Under the pieces are notes generated by a model. That model was not told the origin of the DNA, did not search any database, and saw only the letters and a program-made list of their open reading frames with translations. The translations under genes were made by a program, and so were the position numbers. From a virus, in the IMG/VR virus record IMGVR_UViG_3300036766_000644, positions 112,685 through 176,684 of that record: DNA of 64,000 nucleotides. One strand, 5' to 3'. Below are positions 912 through 53,386 of the stretch, piece by piece; the stretch's first letter is position 1, and every line of letters begins with the position of its first letter.

Positions 912-3752
912 TCAGGGGCTCAGGAGGAGGACGTCCGCGATCGTGTAGGTGAGTTTCACGCCGTACAGCTTGAACATGGCCAGCCCGGCGCCGCTGCCTG
1001 TTGCGTAGATGCCGATACTGAAGGTGGAGCTTGTGGTTGTGGCCGTTTTGTCCGCAGTGACCCCGGTGAGGGCTAGTACTTGTTTCGTTGCCGGGTCGGG
1101 CCCGCCAGCCATCGCTACGCTTACCCCTGTTACCACAGTGGCTTCACTCCACACCGTGCCCGGGCTAGCGAATGCCCCAGGAGTTACTTTTGTGATGCCA
1201 ATCAACGCGGAGATAGCCCCCGCGTTAATGAAGCCGTACCACAGTTCTGCCCCCGTGATCACTGCGTTCAGTGGAAGTGTTACCTGCCGTTCCATTTGAA
1301 AATTGAAGGCCGCGGAGGAGGATAGGAAGAGCGCCCCTGGAGTAGCGCTGCCTGTTTGACCCAGGCCCACGTTCCCCGGGAGCGTGGCCGACCAGGTAAA
1401 ACTCTGTGCCATCAGGTATGACGTGATCGTCTGGAGTGAATTGAATACGACTGCCCGCGGAGCAGTCCCGTAAACGCGAAGTCCCGCCCCCGTGCCGTAA
1501 GGAAAACTCGCGATACCATTCCCGTTACCGCTACCGCCTTCCCCGTATACCCCGGCGCCGTTTGACCCTGACGCACCGCGGCCCACTACTCCGGCTTCGT
1601 CTCCTGTGAGAGTGACTCCGTATACTCCGGAGCTCCCGCCGGTCCCTCCTTCACCCGTGACGCCGTAGGCGGTTAGCCCACTACCCCCAACTCCGCGGAC
1701 GCCGGGGTTAGCCCCTACACCTTGGCCTAGCACTCCGGTGCCGTCGGGACCTCCTAGTCCTGAGACCCCCGCGTAGCCGGTCGAGATTCCTACGCCGAGC
1801 ACCCCGACACCTCCGGCGGACCCGCCCTCACCGTAGACGCCCGCTGTCGAAGAAGCGCCTCCTTTTCCCTTGACGCCGTACCCGGTCGTCGATCCGGCGC
1901 CGTAAACTCCAGGACCCGCACCCGCCCCCTGGCCTTCAACCCCTGCACCGTTAGATCCCGATGCGACGCCTAGAACTCCGCGGTTATCCCCCGCGGGGAC
2001 AACAACGCCTTCGCTGCCAAGGCCTACGATACCAGCGCCGCCCGAAGCGCCGTCTCCAACCCCGACGACGCCGTGGCCTAGCCCGCCGACATCGCCTCCG
2101 CGACCAACGACGCCGAACCCGAGGTGGACGTTGGGGGTAAACCCGGACCAGGCGGCGACGTTCGCGGCGAGACCAGTCACCCCGTGCCCCTCCCCTGCGC
2201 CGTCACCCCGCACACCATTTCCGTTTGGTCCTCCCCCGATACCGTACACGCCATCGCCGGAAGTGGTTCCGCCTTGCCCTGAGACGCCTGCTCCCGTCGT
2301 GTTACCGGTCGCAGTGATCGCAGTCGTAGCCGCGGTGTTCGGCGTAACGATGTTTCCCTTGGTGAACGTGTTGGCGAGCGCCAGCCCCGCCTTACCGTTC
2401 ATCTCGGTAACGATGTTTCCTACGACAGTGTCCAGCGGACCAGCGGGCGTACTGAATGTCGCAGGACCCGCTCCCGTGAGCACCTGCATTCCGATCTTGT
2501 GCGCCCCCGTAGTGCCCGTGAAGGCTCCAAGGGTCGCAACGATACTATCGATCGCCGACTCGAATGACCCCGCAGCGAGCGTCGTCGTATCGGCCCACGC
2601 ATTCGGAGAGCTCCCCTGGTACGACGCTCCGCTTGAAACAAGCGGTCCTGTCTCCCCCGCATTGAACACGCGGCCACTCACGAAGATGAGCTGCCCGTTC
2701 ACTACCGCTGCCAAAGGCAGTGCGCCGGGTAGCCGTGCAGGGAAGCGGCGCATCAGGAACAAGTTGTTCCCGGCGTTCATCGCCATGCCTTCGGGGTTCT
2801 CGAAGATCGACTGGCGTCGCCCGCCGTCCAGCGTCATCACCAGGTCGTCGTATCGAACGCAGAGGACGTCACCCTCGATGAGCTTGTTGAGTGTTCCGCC
2901 GTCTGCGGCGAAGAACTGCACGAGCTGCGAGGGGGTGATGATGTGCTTCTCTGCGTCCGCAGCGCCCGACATGAAGCGTGTCAGTAGCTCAGCCGGGGCG
3001 ATGGTGAGGTAGACCTTGTTCCCCACCACCGGGGACGGAGGCTGAGGGAAGCCGATCTCAATCGGGCCTCCGTTGGGGCCGAGCGTATCCGGGGTAGCCC
3101 CGATGATACCTCCATCGATGACGGCCTCGAGCCCCGCCGCGAGGAACGGTGCGTTCCCGTTGAGCGCCGTGAGCATTTGCGAGACGGTGACGCCTGAGCT
3201 CACGTTGTTGTCGAACTGGACGTGGAAGTTGTTGGCGGGTGCCCCGGTGACCGTGATGATCACGTTACCGAGGCCCGTGTTGACGGGGGTGAAGTCGAAC
3301 GAGATGTCGTTCGCTCCGCTGTACGCTCGGGGCTGCCCCGAGGTCCCGTTCTGCCGCGTACGGATGGTGATTTGGCTCGCAGTGTTCTGGCAGATGATGA
3401 GACGGCTTGCTGTCGAAATCTCTGGAGCTGTGAACGGCTTCAGGATGAAGTTCTGTGTCGCCGAAAACTCGCCAGAGAATCCCGGAGTGATGCCATCCCA
3501 GGTTACGTCCCCCGTGCTGGTGAGGAGCAGCGCCCGGTCGGCGTCGCTGATGTACTTGAGCGCCTCGAGCTCATCGCGCACGATCTCCGTGCGGGTACGG
3601 AGATTCTCCGTGGGGCGTTCCAGCACCGCTGCTTGCGCAGGCTCACCGTCCGTAACAGGACGGACGGACGCTGCGTTCACTTCACCGGTGTCCAAGCCGT
3701 CAACTGTTTCCGGCGTAGCGCTCGTGAGGTATTCGACGTGTTGGCGTGACAT
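912..3752 (-). CDS. tail fibre protein with long glycine-rich (GxGVxG-type) repeat region
   Basis: 946-aa ORF. There is a long run of G-x-G-V/A-x-G repeats between residues about 480 and 760, flanked by Thr/Ala/Asn-rich beta-like regions. It lies downstream of the baseplate genes, and the third codon position is strongly G/C. Confidence 0.6.
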   Translation of the reverse strand: MSRQHVEYLTSATPETVDGLDTGEVNAASVRPVTDGEPAQAAVLERPTENLRTRTEIVRDELEALKYISDADRALLLTSTGDVTWDGITPGFSGEFSATQNFILKPFTAPEISTASRLIICQNTASQITIRTRQNGTSGQPRAYSGANDISFDFTPVNTGLGNVIITVTGAPANNFHVQFDNNVSSGVTVSQMLTALNGNAPFLAAGLEAVIDGGIIGATPDTLGPNGGPIEIGFPQPPSPVVGNKVYLTIAPAELLTRFMSGAADAEKHIITPSQLVQFFAADGGTLNKLIEGDVLCVRYDDLVMTLDGGRRQSIFENPEGMAMNAGNNLFLMRRFPARLPGALPLAAVVNGQLIFVSGRVFNAGETGPLVSSGASYQGSSPNAWADTTTLAAGSFESAIDSIVATLGAFTGTTGAHKIGMQVLTGAGPATFSTPAGPLDTVVGNIVTEMNGKAGLALANTFTKGNIVTPNTAATTAITATGNTTGAGVSGQGGTTSGDGVYGIGGGPNGNGVRGDGAGEGHGVTGLAANVAAWSGFTPNVHLGFGVVGRGGDVGGLGHGVVGVGDGASGGAGIVGLGSEGVVVPAGDNRGVLGVASGSNGAGVEGQGAGAGPGVYGAGSTTGYGVKGKGGASSTAGVYGEGGSAGGVGVLGVGISTGYAGVSGLGGPDGTGVLGQGVGANPGVRGVGGSGLTAYGVTGEGGTGGSSGVYGVTLTGDEAGVVGRGASGSNGAGVYGEGGSGNGNGIASFPYGTGAGLRVYGTAPRAVVFNSLQTITSYLMAQSFTWSATLPGNVGLGQTGSATPGALFLSSSAAFNFQMERQVTLPLNAVITGAELWYGFINAGAISALIGITKVTPGAFASPGTVWSEATVVTGVSVAMAGGPDPATKQVLALTGVTADKTATTTSSTFSIGIYATGSGAGLAMFKLYGVKLTYTIADVLLLSP

Positions 3753-3776
3753 GGTGTCTCCGATTTACTGCGTAGC

Positions 3777-4388
3777 TTAGGAGGTGAAAGCGATGCGCCA
3801 GTCGTAGTCGATCACGAAAGCCGCGCTCTTGGGGATGACAGGGTGGATCTGCCGGGCGAACATTTCAGGGTAGTACCCCGGCACCGAAGGCTCAACGGCC
3901 GGGGAAGCGGGTGGGGCGGGGATCGTCGCTAGAGTTCCGCCGCGGACGAACATCCCCGCCTCGGTCAGATCCCAACCGTTCAGATCTGTTGCGCCGAGTG
4001 TCGCCGTCACCTTCATCTCGAACGGGTTCGAGGTGGTGAGTGTCTTCGAAGCGTCTCCGAGGATCAACGACAGAGGCGCACCGGGGCTCGGGGCGGCCCC
4101 CTGCAGGTTGATGTCCGCCCGCGTCGGAGCGATGGCAGGCACTACCGGCCCCGCAGTCAGGTACCCGCCGAGCCTCAGGTACGAGATTTTGAAGTTCGCC
4201 GGGTCATTCGGGTCGCCAGGCAGGATGTACGTTTTCTGCGAGATCAGGCCTACCAGGCCCCGCAGGGCGACATACATGATGGAGTTTCTGATTTCGTAGC
4301 GCCAGTGCACGTCGCCGCTGTCGGCTCGACGCACGACGATACGCAAATCGCCACGGAGAGGGATCGTACCGGTAAAGGCGTTTTGCAT
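3777..4388 (-). CDS. tail fibre/baseplate-associated protein (about 203 aa)
   Basis: The track ORF 3777..4616 overlaps the upstream gene. An in-frame ATG at 4388 gives a 203-aa product that starts 20 nt after the stop of the 753-aa gene. The N-terminal 76 aa of the long version are Pro/Ser/Thr low-complexity and probably not translated. Confidence 0.4.
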   Translation of the reverse strand: MQNAFTGTIPLRGDLRIVVRRADSGDVHWRYEIRNSIMYVALRGLVGLISQKTYILPGDPNDPANFKISYLRLGGYLTAGPVVPAIAPTRADINLQGAAPSPGAPLSLILGDASKTLTTSNPFEMKVTATLGATDLNGWDLTEAGMFVRGGTLATIPAPPASPAVEPSVPGYYPEMFARQIHPVIPKSAAFVIDYDWRIAFTS

Positions 4389-25819: not shown

Positions 25820-26104
25820 ATGTCAGACGAAGTGATCCCCTGCACGGACTGTCGTTCGGATTTCACCTTTACGGCCAGCGAAGCTACTTTTTTTGCCTCG
25901 AAGGGGCTCACCAAGCCCCGGCGGTGTAAGATCTGCCGTCAAAAGCGTAAGGACGCGAAGGCTGTGGAAGGGGGAGCTGCGACCCCAGCACCTCCTGCGA
26001 AGGGGCGGACAACTCAGTGGGTTGGCGGCGGCGAGCAGGAAGCCCCGCGGCGCAGCAAAGGTAGTCGCCGTCGAGATCACAACTCCGACGACTCCGGGTT
26101 CTAA
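25820..26104 (+). CDS. zinc-ribbon protein (94 aa) with basic C-terminus
   Basis: IPCTDCRSD ... RRCKICRQKRK, that is two CxxC pairs, then an Arg/Lys-rich tail. Confidence 0.45.
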   Translation: MSDEVIPCTDCRSDFTFTASEATFFASKGLTKPRRCKICRQKRKDAKAVEGGAATPAPPAKGRTTQWVGGGEQEAPRRSKGSRRRDHNSDDSGF

Positions 26105-27422: not shown

Positions 27423-27606
27423 AGCAATTGTCGTTGACCCCCGAACGTTGCACGCGCACATCCAGGCGCTTAGGGCTTCCCTCACGGAGATGGTCGAGAA
27501 GGGGGAAGGATGCCTTACGCAGTCCGACTGCGGCCCCGGCTGCTGTCGCTACGGTGATGCGAAACAGGTGCTGAGGGACACCGCGAATCTATACTTCCCC
27601 CCATGA
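27388..27606 (+). CDS. hypothetical protein (72 aa)
   Basis: Short ORF with CGPGCCRYGD at the C-terminus. Confidence 0.35.
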   Translation: MSLHQKAYREPEAIVVDPRTLHAHIQALRASLTEMVEKGEGCLTQSDCGPGCCRYGDAKQVLRDTANLYFPP

Positions 27607-28016
27607 GCGACGACAAATTCCACCTGGTGGTCGAGACTCCAGTCGGGACTCTTGACGAGACATTGAAGCTCGAGTGGGAGCGCTTGCAGTTCAAGCAGAC
27701 GGCCCTCGAGGATCTCATGGCGGAGCAGGAGCAGGCCTTCGAGGCGTTCTGGGACGCCGTCGAGCGCAAGTTCGGCCATCAAGCAGACGCCCTCAACGTC
27801 GCGCCTCGTTTCCTGATTACGGACGAGGGCGGCGTGTCGTTGGACGTGTGCCCCTGCCCCATCTGTCAGGCCCGCTGTCACGGCATCAGCGCCACCGAGG
27901 CGGTGGAGGCGATGTACAAGAGCGATCTGCTTCCGGAGCATGTTCTCGGGCACATGCGAAAGCGTGCCCAGGCAGTTGACTCGGCAAATGAAATGAGCAA
28001 GAAGATGAGGAACTAG
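27603..28016 (+). CDS. hypothetical protein (137 aa) with CPCPIC..C..H cluster
   Basis: ATGA coupling to the upstream gene. Cys cluster CPCPICQARCHG. Confidence 0.4.
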   Translation: MSDDKFHLVVETPVGTLDETLKLEWERLQFKQTALEDLMAEQEQAFEAFWDAVERKFGHQADALNVAPRFLITDEGGVSLDVCPCPICQARCHGISATEAVEAMYKSDLLPEHVLGHMRKRAQAVDSANEMSKKMRN

Positions 28017-28128
28017 GGACCAGCCGTCCCTTCGGCGAAAGCTGTTGCGTGGAAGTACACGGAGAAGCGTTTGACGCGGGCTACGCAGTAAACTGTGAGC
28101 CGCCCTTAAACAAGGCGGTGAACTTTCA

Positions 28129-28468
28129 GGGCCTGAATTGGACTCGATTGGGACCGTAAGATCTAGGCGCGTGCCGAGCTGGTTCACAAGCTCGTAAATC
28201 CAAGAGGACAAAACCAATAAAAGCCAACGACAACGTTGACTTCCCGCAGTACGCGCTCCGCGCAGCCTGAGGGACATCTGTGAGGTAGGAGCTCGAGTAG
28301 CTTACAGGTGCAACACACGAGCAAACGCGAAGAGGCTTCTCGGCCAGGTAATCGGCCTCTGGCGACATAGCAGAACGACCTGGTAGGACCCCGCCACGGG
28401 TAGTGGCTACGCACGTAGTGACGAAGACCAGAAAGTTTCAAGACCCCGGTTCGATTCCGGGCAGGTCC
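28129..28468 (+). ncRNA. ssrA: tmRNA (transfer-messenger RNA, SsrA), one-piece
   Basis: The 5' end GGGCCUGAAUUGGACUCGAUUGGGAC parallels the GGGGCUGAUUCUGGAUUCGACGGGA class of tmRNA 5' ends. The 5' acceptor strand gggcctg pairs with the 3' strand caggtcc, including a G3:U70 wobble, the alanine identity element. The 3' end has the T-arm cccgg-ttcgatt-ccggg followed by caggtcc, a discriminator A, and then CA; there is no genomic CCA. The internal reading frame gcc aac gac aac gtt gac ttc ccg cag tac gcg ctc cgc gca gcc tga encodes ANDNVDFPQYALRAA followed by a stop. Its ANDN start and Y-A-L near the end are typical of proteobacterial tags. The segment gcgtgccgag...ctcgtaaa resembles the pseudoknot-1 region of enterobacterial tmRNA. 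Confidence 0.85.
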
Positions 28469-28477
28469 ACATAGTTG

Positions 28478-28551
28478 ACGCGGGATAGATCAGTCCGGTA
28501 GATCGGTGGGCTCATAACCCACAGGCCGTCGGTTCAAATCCGACTCCCGCA
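28478..28551 (+). tRNA. tRNA-fMet (initiator, anticodon CAT)
   Basis: Acceptor cgcggga pairs with tcccgca, leaving a C1:A72 mismatch. The anticodon stem has three G-C pairs (gggctcataaccc). Both are bacterial initiator hallmarks. D-arm gatc-agtccggta-gatc; T-arm gtcgg-ttcaaat-ccgac. Confidence 0.8.
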
Positions 28552-29172
28552 ATGACGTTCACCGGTTGGCTCCGCAGAGCCACGAGTCCGGTGCGCAGGC
28601 GTACTGTCTACCTGAAATCTGCGGTGGTGGAGGCGCCGTTGTGGGCGCCCTTTGACGGGGTACGTGTCGTAGTTCGACGCAGGCATGCGGCCTGAACGGG
28701 CGCGTATTTGCAAGCCGTGGTGCTTCGAGCGGTCGTCGATTCGAAGTGTTGTCCGTTGGGCGTATGGCTAGGGTACTTGGGCAAGTCAGGCCAACTTCCT
28801 GAGACTGTCTGAGTAGTCACGACCGCTAAGTTCTGGGCGACACCCGGGGCAACGCGGTGCCTGATTTCCGATGTTCGGCTGAGAAAGACGCTGATCCATA
28901 GAAGCGGACAGTCTCGTAGTTCTGCGACGGCTGGAGTATCCGGGCCTAGTGGAGAGATGAAGACGTGGAGAATCGAAGTGCGCCTCATCAGTGCCTCCGT
29001 ACCGGCTGCAGCCGGGACCCGGGGGGAAAAGTCGGTGTCTTACCCAATCGAGGAGCGTCCGTAGACTTGCATGGCGTGTATCGGCGTCCTCGTCAGTTCG
29101 ACAACTCGCCACTACCTCGAGCGTGAGGGAAACATTGAGGCAGGACCCCTGGGACGACTCCCCAGGACTTTT

Positions 29173-38947: not shown

Positions 38948-39448
38948 CTACTCTTCTTGCTTCTCCGCCAAGGGGATGGGGAAAAGGAGCTCCCAGCACT
39001 CAGGTGCTTTCAGTACGATGCCGAACTCCTTCAGGGCCTCCCCAGCAGCAGCGTCATCGTCGATGATCAGGAAGTTGTTGTCCCGATTCTCCAGCCCTTG
39101 TCGGAAGTTCAGTAGCTGTTCCCGCTTGTACTCCGCGGCGTTGAGCATGTTCCCGTTTGGGCGCATCAACAGGAGCGTGTCCGGCAGCGTGATGTTCAGC
39201 TTCTCCAGGAGCCACCGCATCGTAGCGTCCCGCAGGTCCTCGTGCCGCCCAGTGAGGATGACGAGGTCGTACTTCAAAGCCTGTAGCTGCTCGAGGACTC
39301 GCTCTGCCCCGGCGACGACAGGATCTTTGATGACCCGGTCCGGAGATAGGAACGAGTCCCAGTCTTTCGGCTCCTTCTCCACGAAGTGCGCTCGGTGGGC
39401 ATTGTCAGCGAGGGTCTGGTCTAGATCTAGAACGATGAACATGGTCAA
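38948..39448 (-). CDS. HAD-superfamily phosphatase
   Basis: Motif I is VLDLDQTL, DxDxT. It is followed by a downstream Thr/Gly and a Lys, and then the Asp-rich FLIIDDD as motif IV. 166 aa. Confidence 0.6.
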   Translation of the reverse strand: MTMFIVLDLDQTLADNAHRAHFVEKEPKDWDSFLSPDRVIKDPVVAGAERVLEQLQALKYDLVILTGRHEDLRDATMRWLLEKLNITLPDTLLLMRPNGNMLNAAEYKREQLLNFRQGLENRDNNFLIIDDDAAAGEALKEFGIVLKAPECWELLFPIPLAEKQEE

Positions 39449-46426: not shown

Positions 46427-46499
46427 TCCTCGATAGCTCAGTTGGTAGAGCGCGTGACTGTTAATCACGATGTCCCTGGTTCGAGCCCAGGTCGAGGAG
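46427..46499 (+). tRNA. tRNA-Asn (anticodon GTT)
   Basis: Acceptor tcctcga pairs with tcgagga. Anticodon loop ctgttaa. T-arm cctgg-ttcgagc-ccagg. Confidence 0.85.
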
Positions 46500-46503
46500 C
46501 AAG

Positions 46504-46576
46504 GAGATCGTAGCTCAGTAGGTAGAGCATCTGACTTTTAATCAGAGGGTCGCGGGTTCGAAACCCGCCGGTCTCA
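46504..46576 (+). tRNA. tRNA-Lys (anticodon TTT)
   Basis: Acceptor gagatcg pairs with cggtctc, including one G:U. Anticodon loop cttttaa. T-arm gcggg-ttcgaaa-cccgc. Confidence 0.85.
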
Positions 46577-46583
46577 AGTAGTT

Positions 46584-46655
46584 GGACGCTTAGCTCAGCG
46601 GCAGAGCAATGCCTTTACACGGCGTGGGTCGGGGGTTCGAACCCCTCAGCGTCTA
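46584..46655 (+). tRNA. tRNA-Val (anticodon TAC)
   Basis: Acceptor ggacgct pairs with agcgtct. Anticodon stem atgcc/ggcgt with loop tttacac. T-loop ttcgaac. Confidence 0.75.
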
Positions 46656-46745
46656 CATGAACAGAGAAACTGCATTCGAGTACTTGATGGTGTTTTCCCC
46701 GGTGATCTTCGTCATTCTACTGATGCTGTTTTTCTAGGAGGCCGC

Positions 46746-46943
46746 ATGCTCGAGTTCCGTAATCCGATCCCTGTCCTGGTTGAGGGTAAAGAGGGCTACG
46801 CCATCTACGTCACCAACGGAGGCACCTTTGAGCACGACATCTGGTGCGTCGTGATGTGCGACGACCGCACGGTGAAGCACCTCCGCACTGACCAGGTGAA
46901 GATCCACAAGAGCGGTACCTTCGACCCGCCAGCCGCGGACTGA
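46746..46943 (+). CDS. hypothetical protein (65 aa) between tRNA genes
   Basis: AGGAGG RBS 6 nt upstream of the ATG. Good codon bias. Confidence 0.45.
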   Translation: MLEFRNPIPVLVEGKEGYAIYVTNGGTFEHDIWCVVMCDDRTVKHLRTDQVKIHKSGTFDPPAAD

Positions 46944-46947
46944 CCTC

Positions 46948-47021
46948 GGGCCAGTAGCTCAAATGGTTAGAGCAGCGCACTCATAATGCGTCGGTTCCCG
47001 GTTCAAGTCCGGGCTGGCCCA
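46948..47021 (+). tRNA. tRNA-Met, or Ile2 if lysidinylated (anticodon CAT), elongator type
   Basis: The acceptor gggccag/ctggccc is fully paired. Anticodon loop ctcataa. T-arm ccggg-ttcaagt-cccgg. Confidence 0.8.
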
Positions 47022-47038
47022 CAACCCCAAGGAGCCCC

Positions 47039-47239
47039 ATGCCCAAAGCAACGCCACCCAAGAAGATGGCAGTACCTACTCCTGCGCGAAGTCCGATCGA
47101 CTTCACGCAGCTCCCCGCTACCTGCGTCTGCGGGAAGCCTCTGATGCTCATCCTGCAGCAGCCTTCGACGTTTAACATTTCGTGGCGCTGCTACTGCCCG
47201 TCGTGCAAGTGGCACGTCAGCGTGGTGCTCACCCGATGA
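47039..47239 (+). CDS. zinc-ribbon protein (66 aa)
   Basis: CVCGKP ... CYCPSCKWH. Confidence 0.45.
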   Translation: MPKATPPKKMAVPTPARSPIDFTQLPATCVCGKPLMLILQQPSTFNISWRCYCPSCKWHVSVVLTR

Positions 47240-50090: not shown

Positions 50091-52181
50091 ATGATCCCTA
50101 ACACCGCCGTACGGCTGGTCTCTTCGAGTCCAGTCGCTGCGAGCGCTGAGTTCGGCATTTCGCTGAAGGACAGCGCTCACATCATGACCATCCTGCGGGA
50201 CACCTTGTACTCCGACAAGGTGCTCGCAGTGCTTCGAGAGTACAGCGCGAACGCCTGGGACTCTCACAGGGACGCCGGAAAAGGCGACGTTCCGATCAAG
50301 GTAACACTCCCCACGGCCATGGACCCGTCGCTGGTCATCCGTGACTTCGGGGAGGGCCTGTCCCCCGACGAGGTGTTCAACATCTACACGCAGTACGGCT
50401 CGAGCACGAAGCGCGGGAGTGACAACGCCGTCGGTATGCTCGGGATCGGCAGCAAGTCCGGTTTCGCGTATTCTGACAGCTTCACGGTCACGTCGTACCA
50501 CGAAGGAAAGAAGAGCACGTACGTCGCGGTGCTCGACAAGTCTGAGAAGGGCGTCATCAACCTGCTGTGTGATGAGCCTTGCGGGGATGAGACCGGCATC
50601 GCAATCCAGATCGCAATTCGACCTGAAGACATCCGGGAGTTCACCCAGAAGGCGCAGAACCTCTTCCAGTACTTCATCCCGCGCCCCGACATCAACACGA
50701 CGCTCCCAAAGTTGCCCGCGGCCCAGGCGACTCTGAAGCACGGCGTCATCTACGAGCGGACCGACAACTACTACGGCGAGCGTCCGTGGGTAGCGGTCAT
50801 GGGCTGCGTCTCCTACAACGTCAATCTCGATCAAGTTAGTGAGAGTGACTCAACGAAGTTCGGCGGAGTCGCCAACTTTCTGCGCAACATCTCCGGGGCG
50901 CTGTACTTCGACATCGGGGAGGTCCAGGTCAGTGCTTCTCGAGAAGAGCTCAAGTACAGCGCTGAGACGAAGCTGGCGCTGGTCAAGAAGTTCAACGATT
51001 TGGTCGATGAGTACGTACGCCAGTCCCTGGATACCATCCTCAACGGCGGCTTCTCCTCCTGGGAGAAGCGCGTACGATTCCAAGTGCTGGCAAAGCTGCA
51101 CCTGCCCGTACCCGACGATTGTGCAACGCTGCTTGAAGGTTCGATCTCCGTTAAGGAGAAGGTACCCAAGAGCTTTGTCATCTTGCAGAACAGGACGCCC
51201 GTATCGAGTATCCGAATCAACGAAAACACGCGGTTTATCCTGTGGGATGACCGCCGGAGTCGGTCCGGGTTCCAGGACCTCACGGGATCGGACTACCTCG
51301 TCAACCCAGTCACGAAGGACGACAAAGGCAAGGCGATCAAGCTCGACTGGCCAGCCGTCGAGGCGGACCTGGCGGCGATGTGCGCGGCGGTAGACATCAC
51401 CGGCGTCCCCACCCTCAAGCTGTCTTCTTTTACCTGGGCGATGCCTACCAAGGTGGGCGGGCGCAAGATCAACCCGAAGCACCGGACACAGGTGTTCCGG
51501 TACAACCCCGAGGGCGGCTACTGCAAGCCCTGGTCTGACTGCTGGGAACCCGAGGACCGCGTCCCGGACCCGTCTGACGTCTTCACCATCATCTCCAACT
51601 TCCGCACCGTCGGCTTCGACATGGGGGCATACTACAAGGAAGATTCTTTGCTCGCAGAGGAGCTCGGGGGAGTTATCCCGCCGATCTACGGCTACAAGAC
51701 CACCGATAAGAAGCCAGTTGAAGAGAAGGACTGCGTCGGTACGCCGTATCAAACATGGCGAGACTCATTCGTAGCCTCGCTCATCGCCCCAGGTCTTCAG
51801 GTCAAGCTGGACCACTGGCACTGGTCTTCCGTTTTCTCCGAGGGGAGATACAACTGGAACTACCCCCGCGTAGGCAGTGACACTGTAAAGAAATTGACGA
51901 AGATCCTTGGCCCGACGCATTCGATCACGGTTTTCGCCGAGAAGTACTCCGACGGTGGCGTCTACTGCCACGCGCATCCCCATCTGAGCCAGGCGCTGGA
52001 TAGGCTGTCTCGACGCTTACCCGTCCAGACGTTGAAAGACTCAGCCGCACAGAAAGAACTCAAGGCGATCTACGAGAAGTACCCATTGCTCAAGGCGACG
52101 GAAGAAACTTCTGTTTGCGAGCTGTGGGGCAAGCACTCCGAGCACTGGGCGCAATACGTCAAACTCATCGACGCAATCTAA
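50091..52181 (+). CDS. rIIA-like protein with N-terminal GHKL (HATPase_c) ATPase domain
   Basis: N-box EYSANAWDS, G1 box IRDFGEGL, G2 box GMLGIGSKSGF. 696 aa. An rIIB-sized gene follows directly. Confidence 0.5.
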   Translation: MIPNTAVRLVSSSPVAASAEFGISLKDSAHIMTILRDTLYSDKVLAVLREYSANAWDSHRDAGKGDVPIKVTLPTAMDPSLVIRDFGEGLSPDEVFNIYTQYGSSTKRGSDNAVGMLGIGSKSGFAYSDSFTVTSYHEGKKSTYVAVLDKSEKGVINLLCDEPCGDETGIAIQIAIRPEDIREFTQKAQNLFQYFIPRPDINTTLPKLPAAQATLKHGVIYERTDNYYGERPWVAVMGCVSYNVNLDQVSESDSTKFGGVANFLRNISGALYFDIGEVQVSASREELKYSAETKLALVKKFNDLVDEYVRQSLDTILNGGFSSWEKRVRFQVLAKLHLPVPDDCATLLEGSISVKEKVPKSFVILQNRTPVSSIRINENTRFILWDDRRSRSGFQDLTGSDYLVNPVTKDDKGKAIKLDWPAVEADLAAMCAAVDITGVPTLKLSSFTWAMPTKVGGRKINPKHRTQVFRYNPEGGYCKPWSDCWEPEDRVPDPSDVFTIISNFRTVGFDMGAYYKEDSLLAEELGGVIPPIYGYKTTDKKPVEEKDCVGTPYQTWRDSFVASLIAPGLQVKLDHWHWSSVFSEGRYNWNYPRVGSDTVKKLTKILGPTHSITVFAEKYSDGGVYCHAHPHLSQALDRLSRRLPVQTLKDSAAQKELKAIYEKYPLLKATEETSVCELWGKHSEHWAQYVKLIDAI

Positions 52182-52189
52182 AGGACACC

Positions 52190-53386
52190 ATGACAATCAC
52201 ACCTCCGCCGTACACCCTCACCAACGCATCGATCACCGTCGTCTGGGAGGGCAAGCCGCACACCGTGCAGAAGGGGTCTCCCAACTTCAATGCACTGCGT
52301 AAAGCCATCATCGAAGAGAAGTGGGCGGCCATCCCGAAGAACCTCACCGTCGCCAAGAGCATCAAGGACTGGGCGAAGGGCAAGTTCACCCTGGCGGACA
52401 ATGTCTTCTCGTTCGAAGGCATGCCTCTCCCCAGCGGCATCAACGGGCGCATCCTCAAGATGGCCACCTCGGGCGAAGATCCGACTCCGCTGTTCAAGTT
52501 CTGGGAGCGCCTGCATAAGAACCCCTCCATGCGCTCAGTGGAACAGCTCTGGCCCTTCCTCGACCAGAAGGGAATCCCTATCACCAAGGACGGCCATTTC
52601 CTGGCGTACAAGGGGGTCAAGAGCGACTTCATGGATGCTCACACGGGGACCATCAGCAACAAGCCTGGGACGAAGCACGTGATGCCTCGTAACCAGATCT
52701 CGGATGACCCGAACCATGCGTGCCACGAAGGGTTCCACGTCGGAGCTCTCGAGTACGCACGTACCTTCTCCCAGAGGGTCGTCATCTGCGAAGTGGACCC
52801 GGAGCACGTTGTCTGCGTGCCCTACGACTCGAGCCAGCAGAAGATGCGTGTCTGCGAGTACAAGGTCATCGGCAACCACAACGGAAGCTACATGTCCTCT
52901 ACGACGCACTCGGAAGAGACCGAGGAGGCAGAGACGAACGACGAGACGTTCAATGCCAAGGGAACGGCGGCTGACGCTCCCGCCGACTACGACGTGAACA
53001 ACGACTTCCTCGCAGAGCCTTGCGATGAGTGCGGCAGCAAGATCCCGCCGGACTGCACCTCGGAGGACAACAAGTACCACTCTCCGGAGTGCGGCCTCTA
53101 CAACCCGGATCTTCCAGAGGAAGAGGAGAAGAAGCCCGCGCCTGCGAAGCCTGCCAAGAAGACCGGCAAGCAGAAGAAGAAGGAGCACAAGGCCAAGAAG
53201 AAGGCGGGCAAGGTCATGGCGCAGAGCTTTGACAAGCTCAAGAAGATGGACATGGTCGGCCTCCTCAACGAGTCCCTCGACGCGCTGCGGGCCTACGCAG
53301 GCAAGGGCCTCCAGATCGTAGGAGCGTCGAAGATCCCTGGAGGCAAGACCGCCCTGGTGTCGGTCATCATGAAGACGAGGGGCTGA
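52190..53386 (+). CDS. rIIB-like protein (398 aa) with Lys-rich C-terminal tail
   Basis: ATG at 52190, 9 nt after the upstream stop. Glu/Lys-rich C-terminus EEEEKKPAPAKPAKKTGKQKKKEHKAKKKAGK. The call rests on position only. Confidence 0.35.
   Translation: MTITPPPYTLTNASITVVWEGKPHTVQKGSPNFNALRKAIIEEKWAAIPKNLTVAKSIKDWAKGKFTLADNVFSFEGMPLPSGINGRILKMATSGEDPTPLFKFWERLHKNPSMRSVEQLWPFLDQKGIPITKDGHFLAYKGVKSDFMDAHTGTISNKPGTKHVMPRNQISDDPNHACHEGFHVGALEYARTFSQRVVICEVDPEHVVCVPYDSSQQKMRVCEYKVIGNHNGSYMSSTTHSEETEEAETNDETFNAKGTAADAPADYDVNNDFLAEPCDECGSKIPPDCTSEDNKYHSPECGLYNPDLPEEEEKKPAPAKPAKKTGKQKKKEHKAKKKAGKVMAQSFDKLKKMDMVGLLNESLDALRAYAGKGLQIVGASKIPGGKTALVSVIMKTRG

Follow-up and report, generated by a model that had tools for sequence, protein, structure and literature searches.

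A 64,000-nucleotide stretch of viral DNA (positions 112,685 to 176,684 of IMG/VR virus record IMGVR_UViG_3300036766_000644; hereafter the window) contains a one-piece transfer-messenger RNA (tmRNA) gene, ssrA, whose encoded peptide tag, ANDNVDFPQYALRAA, carries an arginine (Arg) directly before its terminal Ala-Ala. From sequence comparison, this is probably a functional tmRNA of an uncultured tailed phage of about 170-197 kb, captured by an ancestor of its phage group from a Myxococcota-type ssrA, in which the arginine and a longer spacer most likely retune the degron. The tag equals the host-type tag ANDNV(E/D)(L/F)..ALAA with a short insert in its middle and a single arginine added before the terminal Ala-Ala.

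The presence of a complete one-piece tmRNA, as proposed in a first-pass annotation of the window, was confirmed with the Rfam covariance model RF00023, which matched 28129-28472 (+) over the full model (positions 1-374) at 107.4 bits against a gathering threshold of 47 (E 5.5e-41), and ARAGORN agreed with a tmRNA call at 28129-28470. The G3:U70 alanine identity pair was read directly from the sequence as G28131:U28466, and this pair, the acceptor stem and the T arm, all listed in the same annotation, were found unbroken in ten homologues. The 3' CCA is not encoded, the bases after the discriminator being CAU; as most of the Myxococcota tmRNA genes examined likewise lack an encoded CCA, its absence is no argument against membership of the tmRNA family. 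Selection on the RNA was evident from an alignment of ten uninterrupted homologues (57-94% identical by region), in which compensatory double changes were seen in 30 of the 57 pairs predicted by RNAalifold. G3:U was invariant (10/10), acceptor pairs 4, 5 and 6 covaried with none broken, three of the five T-stem pairs showed compensatory changes with none broken, and helix 2 and stem 1 of pseudoknot 1 (PK1) covaried too; an alignment of five sequences gave the same picture. Minus-strand open reading frames (ORFs) that had been dismissed as spurious are present in the mechanical ORF list (28126-28368 and 28184-28441, with 27549-28277 overlapping the 5' end), and the RNA underlying them shows structural covariation. 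The minimum-free-energy fold of the whole RNA was uninformative (z = -1.5), pseudoknots being outside the model.

The mRNA-like domain consists of AAUAAAA followed by a 15-codon frame (GCC...GCA GCC UGA) with its stop codon in the 3' strand of helix 5. Its codons, GCC AAC GAC AAC GTT GAC TTC CCG CAG TAC GCG CTC CGC GCA GCC TGA, encode ANDNVDFPQYALRAA, exactly the tag first proposed, and the resume codon was not mis-set. ARAGORN, while calling the tmRNA, placed a different tag, ATHEQTRRGFSAR, at gene positions 182-223. That this output for the window is the true tag has almost no chance of being correct, since the consensus resume region (AAUAAuUGCaAACgAc) was aligned by Rfam on 28216-28231, bacterial ANDNVEL... 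tags begin with the same 21 nt as the frame, and the alternative ORF is not conserved in the related loci L128, L126 and L002. Moreover, in L004, an 86%-identical homologue, ARAGORN itself called ANDNVDFPQYALRAA, though a downstream alternative ORF also exists there, and in L128, L126, L155, L243 and L244 it called the homologous frame. The alternative tag would also end in a charged residue, for which Carsonella is the sole known case (PMC4131195).

The miscall likely reflects the structure of the window's copy. Stem 1 of PK1 comprises six pairs, CGAGCU (28175-28180) with AGCUCG (28189-28194), and covaries (alignment columns 50-55 with 64-69), whereas stem 2, as read by hand, comprises only four, GUUC (28182-28185) with GGAC (28206-28209), one of them G-U. 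In L004, stem 2 has six pairs (GGUCAC/GUGACC) and the Rfam score is 150 bits versus 107 for the window; the weak stem 2 would likely explain both the lower score and the wrong tag. ARAGORN often began the tag upstream of the homologous resume codon, as in L002 (7604-7974) and in bacterial loci such as L020, L039 and L117 (for example ADQDSK-ANSDVEL... and VNHEGNDTK-ANDNVELALAA), and the starts it chose in L240 and L241 lie too far downstream, giving APEFRAAA. For this lineage, a tag call by ARAGORN is not reliable by itself.

Relatives were sought without selecting on the tag, using as synteny anchor a major-vault-protein (MVP)-like gene located 2.2 kb downstream of the tmRNA. These were obtained from IMG/VR contigs of 167-190 kb, Joint Genome Institute (JGI) metagenomes and the protein database, and one further relative, on a 197-kb viral contig, came from a tag-start pattern scan. 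Eleven distinct tmRNAs of the phage group were compared, all but the window's own having been found by synteny or tag start and none by tag end, and their tags were read from the homologous GCC resume codon. The window and L004 share ANDNVDFPQYALRAA; the other tags are ANDNVELYDAPALRAA (L128), ANDNVELSAPLLRAA (L243), ANDNVELPAWMIGAVAPEFRAAA (L126 and L241), ANSNVELPAWMIGAVAPEFRAAA (L240), ANSDVELPAWMIGASAPEFRAAA (L002), ANDNVELPAWMIGASAPEFRAAA (L155), ANDNVALPAWMIGASAPEFRAAA (L238) and ANDNVELAPALLAA (L244, the most distant, with an MVP-like protein 62% identical). An arginine precedes the terminal Ala-Ala or Ala-Ala-Ala in ten of the eleven, the exception being L244, which ends ...LLAA. The earlier description of the arginine as an insertion before the terminal Ala-Ala was borne out by L243 (...CTG CTT CGC GCA GCG TGA) and L244 (...CTG CTC GCA GCG TGA), between which a clean in-frame CGC insertion is seen; this places the origin of the arginine in a single event in the subclade's ancestor. 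That the tag ends in RAA is true of the window, but not of its long-tag relatives, in which the arginine is at -4 and the end is AAA. As read from these sequences, the feature conserved in the clade is an arginine followed by two or three alanines. The arginine was absent from the 103 bacterial tags among the matches listed (see below), from 16 other viral tags of the ANDNV type, from the tag of Myxococcus phage Mx1 and from L244.

Once inserted, the arginine was retained in all ten descendants, even as the central part of the tag changed repeatedly (PQY, YDAP, SAPL, PAWMIGA[SV]APEF), and Arg-Ala-Ala was retained in RNAs only 59-63% identical overall. The codons for ALRAA and stop are GCG CTC CGC GCA GCC TGA in the window, GCG CTT CGC GCG GCC TGA in L004 and GCT CTG CGG GCA GCC TAG in L128, and all five coding-codon differences among them are synonymous (GCG/GCT, CTC/CTT/CTG, CGC/CGG, GCA/GCG). 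Among the long tags, L126 and L155 are 77% identical overall and differ in only 2 of 24 tag codons. The structural context of the arginine codon in local folds varied: the codon is part of a stem in L128 and of a hairpin loop in L243, straddles loop and stem in the window and L004, and is essentially unpaired in the long-tag type. An explanation of the codon by RNA structure, in which two bases of the inner GCGC/GCGC hairpin of the window and L004 come from CGC and the GCA>GCG change of L004 adds one base pair, is accordingly very unlikely; it was ruled out largely by the differing local folds among lineages, and in addition the third base of the codon varies and L244 folds helix 5 without the codon. 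Given the synonymous changes and the varying structural context, selection on the peptide is the simplest reading, to which the sequences point.

It was also considered whether the arginine is neutral, a founder mutation in which CGC was inserted once by slippage in what would be a plain extra rescue copy with an ordinary ClpXP degron. All Arg-bearing sequences do belong to one subclade and one event, and the tag shared by the window and L004 says little as these are 94% identical through the middle of the RNA. The Ala-Ala-COO- end is intact, and natural tags are known with a KAA end (Helicobacter pylori) or with arginine at -4 (Chlamydia trachomatis). However, the preservation of Arg-Ala-Ala beside a repeatedly rewritten tag middle, the wholly synonymous codon differences and the lack of a consistent RNA-structural role for the codon all argue against neutrality, which we regard as possible but unlikely.

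The first-pass annotation had further proposed that the tag is an altered degron, and the arginine is indeed at -3; the main ClpX determinant, however, is retained. In Escherichia coli, the terminal Ala-Ala-COO- is dominant for ClpX, and mutation of the antepenultimate Leu raises the Michaelis constant (KM) only modestly (PMC7652416). Compared with the ClpX C-motif-1, the tag has a C-terminal Ala-Ala with a free alpha-carboxylate (...R-A-A-stop), and arginine in place of the non-polar antepenultimate residue (Leu, Val, Ile or Ala). Two parts of the proposal did not hold. SspB, which had been said to recognize the LAA end, instead binds the first seven tag residues, AANDENY (PMC9963277). Nor is a basic residue at -3 a departure from all known tags, as that of H. 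pylori, VNNTDYAPAYAKAA, ends AKAA; the tag of C. trachomatis ends ...DLRVAA (PMC12493166, Table 1).

As Ala-Ala-COO- is retained, the tag would most likely still be a ClpXP-type degron. The arginine and the longer spacer would then retune how strongly the tag is bound, or by which factor, without abolishing degradation; a positive charge beside the carboxylate might weaken binding to ClpX, because ClpX contacts the surroundings of the carboxylate through its basic RKH loops. A stronger alternative is that the arginine destroys the ClpXP/SspB degron, so that tagged products escape proteolysis or are directed to another, possibly phage-encoded, protease. It would fit the conservation of the arginine and its restriction to the phage clade, none of the 103 host tags listed having it, and in a lambda-immP22 hybrid phage tmRNA is reportedly needed for ribosome rescue and not for proteolysis. 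It is, however, improbable: the dominant ClpX determinant remains, SspB would bind the N-terminal part of the tag, which is host-like here, the long-tag relatives end ...FRAAA with their last three residues alanine, and no gene for a protease, adaptor or SmpB was found in the window.

Retuning of the degron remains the favored reading. A more far-reaching form, that the phage clade has re-engineered the degron, keeping a host-like head (ANDNVEL), lengthening the spacer and fixing an arginine next to the terminal alanines, so that phage-tagged proteins are handled differently from host-tagged ones, is offered only tentatively; it might take the form of weaker ClpX binding, with ClpX not saturated or proteins spared, or of the use of another protease or adaptor. 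If true, it would represent a viral uncoupling of ribosome rescue from the default proteolysis of the host.

SmpB was not detected by tblastn in the window, in the phage loci or in the complete Mx1 genome, with E. coli SmpB (a query that found real SmpB genes in L014 and L124) and two Myxococcota-type SmpBs as queries. A profile scan gave 300 SmpB-bearing viral contigs, and none of the best 80 of these 300 belonged to this phage group. Similarly, among about 40 ORFs of the window annotated with Pfam and PHROGs, no protease or adaptor was found adjoining the tmRNA or elsewhere, and no CCA-adding enzyme adjoining it. As no phage SmpB was found, the phage presumably uses the SmpB, alanyl-tRNA synthetase (AlaRS), EF-Tu, RNase P and CCA-adding enzyme of its host. 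The tmRNA would be transcribed together with the tRNAs of its cluster, its 5' end matured by RNase P and its CCA added by host enzymes; it would be charged with alanine by host AlaRS through G3:U70 and delivered to the ribosome by host SmpB and EF-Tu. Extra capacity to rescue stalled ribosomes would thereby be provided during infection, the released chains being tagged (A)ANDNVDFPQYALRAA.

To place the donor lineage, bacterial and archaeal genomes, one per species, were scanned with the pattern AAAGCCAACGAYAAYGTNGA (K-ANDNV-D/E, with the tag end left free), which gave at least 120 loci. Those listed were nearly all from Myxococcota (Myxococcus, Corallococcus, Archangium, Cystobacter, Hyalangium, Pyxidicoccus, Vitiosangium and Vulgatibacter). 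ARAGORN found 103 bacterial tmRNAs in the listed loci, 96 of which encode ANDNVELALAA (with the frame started upstream by ARAGORN in 8 of them); the others comprise four ANDNVELAVAA, one ANDNVDFALAA, one ANDNVELTLAAA, one ANDNVEAAPALMAA and one evident miscall. Comparison with the putative host clade, a check suggested along with the original annotation, therefore showed the arginine to be specific to the phage clade (0/103 of the Myxococcota tags listed). The similarity extends beyond the tag. The window's RNA is 76-86% identical to Myxococcota tmRNAs over positions 30-119 and 279-342, and L128 is 85-87% identical to those of Myxococcus, Corallococcus and Archangiaceae over nt 1-113 and 84-90% over its last 66 nt, whereas the region of pseudoknots 2-4 could not be aligned between phage and Myxococcota RNAs. 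Among cellular proteins, the nearest named homologues of the MVP-like protein (~50% identity) are from Kofleriaceae and 'Deltaproteobacteria' metagenome-assembled genomes (MAGs), and bacterial MVP homologues have been reported only in Myxococcales, Cytophagales and Oscillatoriales (bioRxiv 10.1101/872010). The whole-RNA similarity together with the affinities of the MVP-like gene suggests a Myxococcota-type ssrA as origin, and the host is probably a myxobacterium.

The ANDNV start alone was rejected as proof of myxobacterial origin, as 16 low-GC viral contigs in IMG/VR (33-43% GC; L139-L156) share the tag-start pattern. Their one-piece tmRNAs encode tags such as ANDNVELDYALAA, ANDNVE(L/F)(D/N)YALAA, ANDNVE(L/F)VP(T/A)AIAA and ANDNVDSESYALAA, and score far below the Myxococcota RNAs against the phage group; they clearly represent a different lineage, which is probably marine.

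Several observations weigh against the interpretation of a captured, functional tmRNA with a retuned degron. The ten Arg-bearing sequences descend from one insertion and represent about four tag lineages, so that independent comparisons are few. The effect of position -3 in E. coli is only modest (PMC7652416), and H. pylori uses ...AKAA (PMC12493166). The search for SmpB and proteases covered 64 kb of a genome of about 190 kb. The host is deduced from sequence affinities, and ANDNV starts occur also on low-GC viral contigs unlikely to come from myxobacteria. Finally, stem 2 of PK1 is weak in the window's copy, which scores lower with Rfam than any other uninterrupted homologue.

Since ssrA is an integration site of many temperate phages, it was considered whether the gene is a host ssrA at the edge of a prophage or on a contig that was binned wrongly. 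IMG/VR contains such cases, one example being L143 (GC 66%), which bears the exact host tag ANDNVELALAA. For the window, this explanation is highly improbable. The tmRNA is located mid-window with phage genes on both sides and heads a tRNA cluster, the first tRNA beginning 9 nt past its 3' end; the tmRNA-tRNA synteny recurs in at least ten independent assemblies, including viral contigs of 167-197 kb; the RNA is only 76-86% identical to bacterial tmRNAs, and at its ends only; and a hairpin located 10 nt upstream of its 5' end was absent before all 104 bacterial tmRNAs examined. The order that recurs in relatives is hairpin, tmRNA, tRNA-Met, tRNA-Ser, (tRNA-Gln), tRNA-Ala, ..., MVP-like gene, and this conserved synteny indicates that the tmRNA is an internal part of the phage genome and not a prophage-host junction. 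Profile annotation also identified rIIA (phrog_612, 2.5e-95) and rIIB (phrog_609, 4.3e-64), two helicases and weak matches to baseplate-J, tail or lysis, and head-decoration proteins among the window's ORFs, many of which were without a family, and two tRNA clusters were found by ARAGORN. Neither the tmRNA (blastn) nor the surrounding 20 kb (megablast) had a match among 50,697 deposited phage genomes.

The upstream hairpin is near-identical in the window, L004, L002, L126, L128, L240 and L241, lies further upstream in L238 and is absent in L243 and L244. It is possibly a processing or regulatory element. A role as a repeated regulatory motif was ruled out, since it occurs once in the window, and in the viral collection it was found only in two relatives already known. 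It has no T-run and no sigma-70-like promoter nearby; a scan for sigma-70 promoters and terminators around the tmRNA gave no promoter-like site, and terminator-like hits on the opposite strand only. The outer pairs of helix 5 were retained in the alignment of homologues. The positions of these and the other features of the window are collected in Table 1.

Table 1. Positions of the tmRNA, its parts and other features in the 64,000-nucleotide window.
Feature	Position	Strand	Basis or remarks
zf_Tbcl treble-clef protein	25820-26104	+	
Hairpin CCGCC-CTTAAACAA-GGCGG	28100-28118	+	Candidate element
One-piece tmRNA (ssrA), G1 to discriminator A	28129-28469	+	RF00023, ARAGORN, covariation
Acceptor stem, 5' strand GGGCCUG	28129-28135	+	Pairs with 28462-28468; G3 = 28131, alanine identity base
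PK1 region	28175-28209	+	Hand reading of sequence and alignment
Tag frame, encoding ANDNVDFPQYALRAA	28223-28270	+	Resume GCC 28223-28225; Arg CGC 28259-28261; TGA 28268-28270
Helix 5 stem-loop around tag end and stop codon; inner hairpin GCGC-UCC-GCGC	28242-28274	+	Local fold -16.4 kcal/mol
T arm CCCGG-UUCGAUU-CCGGG, GUUCGAUUC-type loop	28445-28461	+	Rfam alignment
Acceptor stem, 3' strand CAGGUCC, and discriminator A28469	28462-28469	+	U28466 pairs with G3
tRNA-Met(CAU)	28479-28552	+	ARAGORN and Rfam; first tRNA of cluster
tRNA-Ser(UGA)	29173-29260	+	ARAGORN and Rfam; cluster member
tRNA-Gln(UUG)-like, weak	29295-29358	+	Rfam tRNA 33.9 bits, model positions 5-66; 6-nt anticodon loop
tRNA-Ala(UGC)	29498-29571	+	ARAGORN and Rfam; cluster member
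MVP-like gene, 899 aa	30662-33361	+	Pfam MVP_shoulder 5.5e-21, Vault_3 1.5e-11
HAD/PNKP-phosphatase-like ORF	38948-39448	-	Might act in RNA repair
Second tRNA cluster (Asn, Lys, Val, Met)	46427-47022	+	
rIIA-rIIB adjacent pair	50091-53386	+	

The tmRNA of the window (28129-28469) and that of L004 (8252-8593) form a mosaic, the middle being 94% identical and the 5' 45 nt and 3' 46 nt only 64-67%. The divergent parts correspond to the tRNA-like domain and helix 2, and every change in them is compensated; for example, where helix 2 begins, GAC>GAU is balanced by G>A in the opposite strand (columns 20/373). The acceptor stem of the window, GGGCCUG/CAGGUCC, is identical in the long-tag relative L238 and close to that of Mx1. 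The mosaic pattern suggests that the tRNA-like domain was exchanged by recombination, or that it co-evolved rapidly with a partner. The tmRNA gene of L238 (Logan SRR12762275 contig, 3033-4048 (+)) contains a 647-nt insertion (3388-4034) between T-loop nucleotides 6 and 7, with the 3' piece of the tmRNA, T-CCCAC-CAGGTCC-A, at 4035-4048. The insertion carries a minus-strand ORF of 144 aa (3510-3944) with a borderline match to LAGLIDADG homing endonucleases (22.4 bits against a cutoff of 22.5) and matched no Rfam intron family at E <= 1. Possibly a phage tmRNA is interrupted here by an intron, or by a mobile intervening sequence of another kind.

Like the window, L004 (9596-9668), L238 (4405-4477) and L240 (1846-1918) have a tRNA-Gln-like gene whose anticodon loop is 6 nt long. 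The anticodon loops read AUUGGA, UUUGGA or AUUUGG instead of having 7 nt, and ARAGORN reports them as 'tRNA-???'. Compensatory differences in the anticodon stem between copies argue against simple decay. The acceptor stem of the window's copy looks degraded. In L002, L243 and L131, a normal 7-nt anticodon loop is found at the tRNA-Gln position.

The MVP-like protein, which is matched by MVP chains in the PDB at about 1e-21, has over 5,000 homologues in the database. Closest to it are proteins of phage-like contigs (61-95% identity), followed by those of the Kofleriaceae and Deltaproteobacteria MAGs and then by 'huge phages' of 462-735 kb (LR756500-03; 38-40%). MVPs of gut phages were presented as the first viral ones (2023 preprint), and the MVP-like protein of the present environmental clade appears to be separate from these.

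Phage-encoded tmRNAs are in themselves well documented. They are known from the mycobacteriophages Bxz1, Catera and others and from Bacillus phage G (PMC4131195), are carried by huge phages (PMC7162821), and were found in 402 of 18,146 phage genomes (~2%), comprising 133 unique sequences (PMC9004378); it has been proposed that they help to maintain the translation apparatus once it is hijacked, or that they tag selected proteins. What is new is the phage lineage, its probable myxobacterial host, the corrected tag and, as a modest lead, a clade-wide arginine that is absent from a near-invariant donor tag. In the phage-tmRNA literature surveyed, no report of a conserved, clade-wide arginine insertion in the degron end was found. 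With a donor tag near-invariant as ANDNVELALAA, phage tag middles that have diverged and an arginine that has been kept, the clade constitutes a clean natural experiment. If the arginine changes degradation, these phages would tune the fate of rescued polypeptides and not merely rescue capacity, and a natural variant would be available for the effects of residue -3 or -4 on degron strength. If it has no effect, the gene would simply add to the known phage tmRNAs, its tag correctly annotated in a case that ARAGORN gets wrong.

The closest known counterpart is the chromosomal ssrA of Myxococcota (Myxococcus, Corallococcus, Archangium, Cystobacter and Hyalangium), which belongs to the same family, RF00023, and encodes ANDNVELALAA with the same Ala-Ala end. 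It is 76-90% identical to the phage genes at the nucleotide level in the region of helix 2, PK1 and the tag start and in the 3' tRNA-like domain, and the first five tag codons are identical. Unlike it, the phage copy belongs to a phage tRNA cluster and is preceded by a hairpin specific to the phages, and its tag is four residues longer, with arginine at -3. The known phage tmRNAs resemble the window's in being complete ssrA genes, usually among many tRNA genes, of host-lineage origin and with a presumed role in rescue or in the proteome, but belong to different phage lineages and a different putative host phylum; that of marine Melnitz-like phages is in two pieces and linked to a riboswitch, whereas the window's is in one piece.

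A further counterpart was found in Myxococcus phage Mx1 (OR576727.2), with a tmRNA at 46646-47023 (+) (Rfam 117.7 bits, E 5.7e-47) that encodes the tag VNTNVFGSQMMAAA. The GenBank record leaves this tmRNA unannotated and covers its position with small coding sequences, one of them a 'Hef-like endonuclease' at 46919-47044; the published genome announcement mentions 22 tRNAs only. Mx1 is a cultured, large, tRNA-rich phage with a GC content below that of its host, its tag has a host-like start and a divergent middle, its acceptor stem resembles GGGCCUG of the window, and SmpB is absent from its complete genome. The resume codon of Mx1 is GUC, however, and its tag ends MMAAA without arginine. Kinship of the two phages at the protein level was ruled out, as no ORF of the window matched Mx1 at 1e-5.

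Among cellular tags, those of H. pylori and C. trachomatis are similar in having a basic residue at -3 or -4 before Ala-Ala or Val-Ala-Ala. In these bacteria the tag is cellular and fixed in the lineage, whereas in the window the basic residue separates the phage copy from the tag of the host clade. The E. coli tag, AANDENYALAA, shares the N-terminal A-N-D-N/E, an aromatic residue followed by A-L, and the terminal Ala-Ala-COO-. It differs in that the phage arginine displaces the antepenultimate Leu, and in the spacer between the AND(E/N) head and Tyr, which has five residues (VDFPQ) in the window and one (E) in E. coli.

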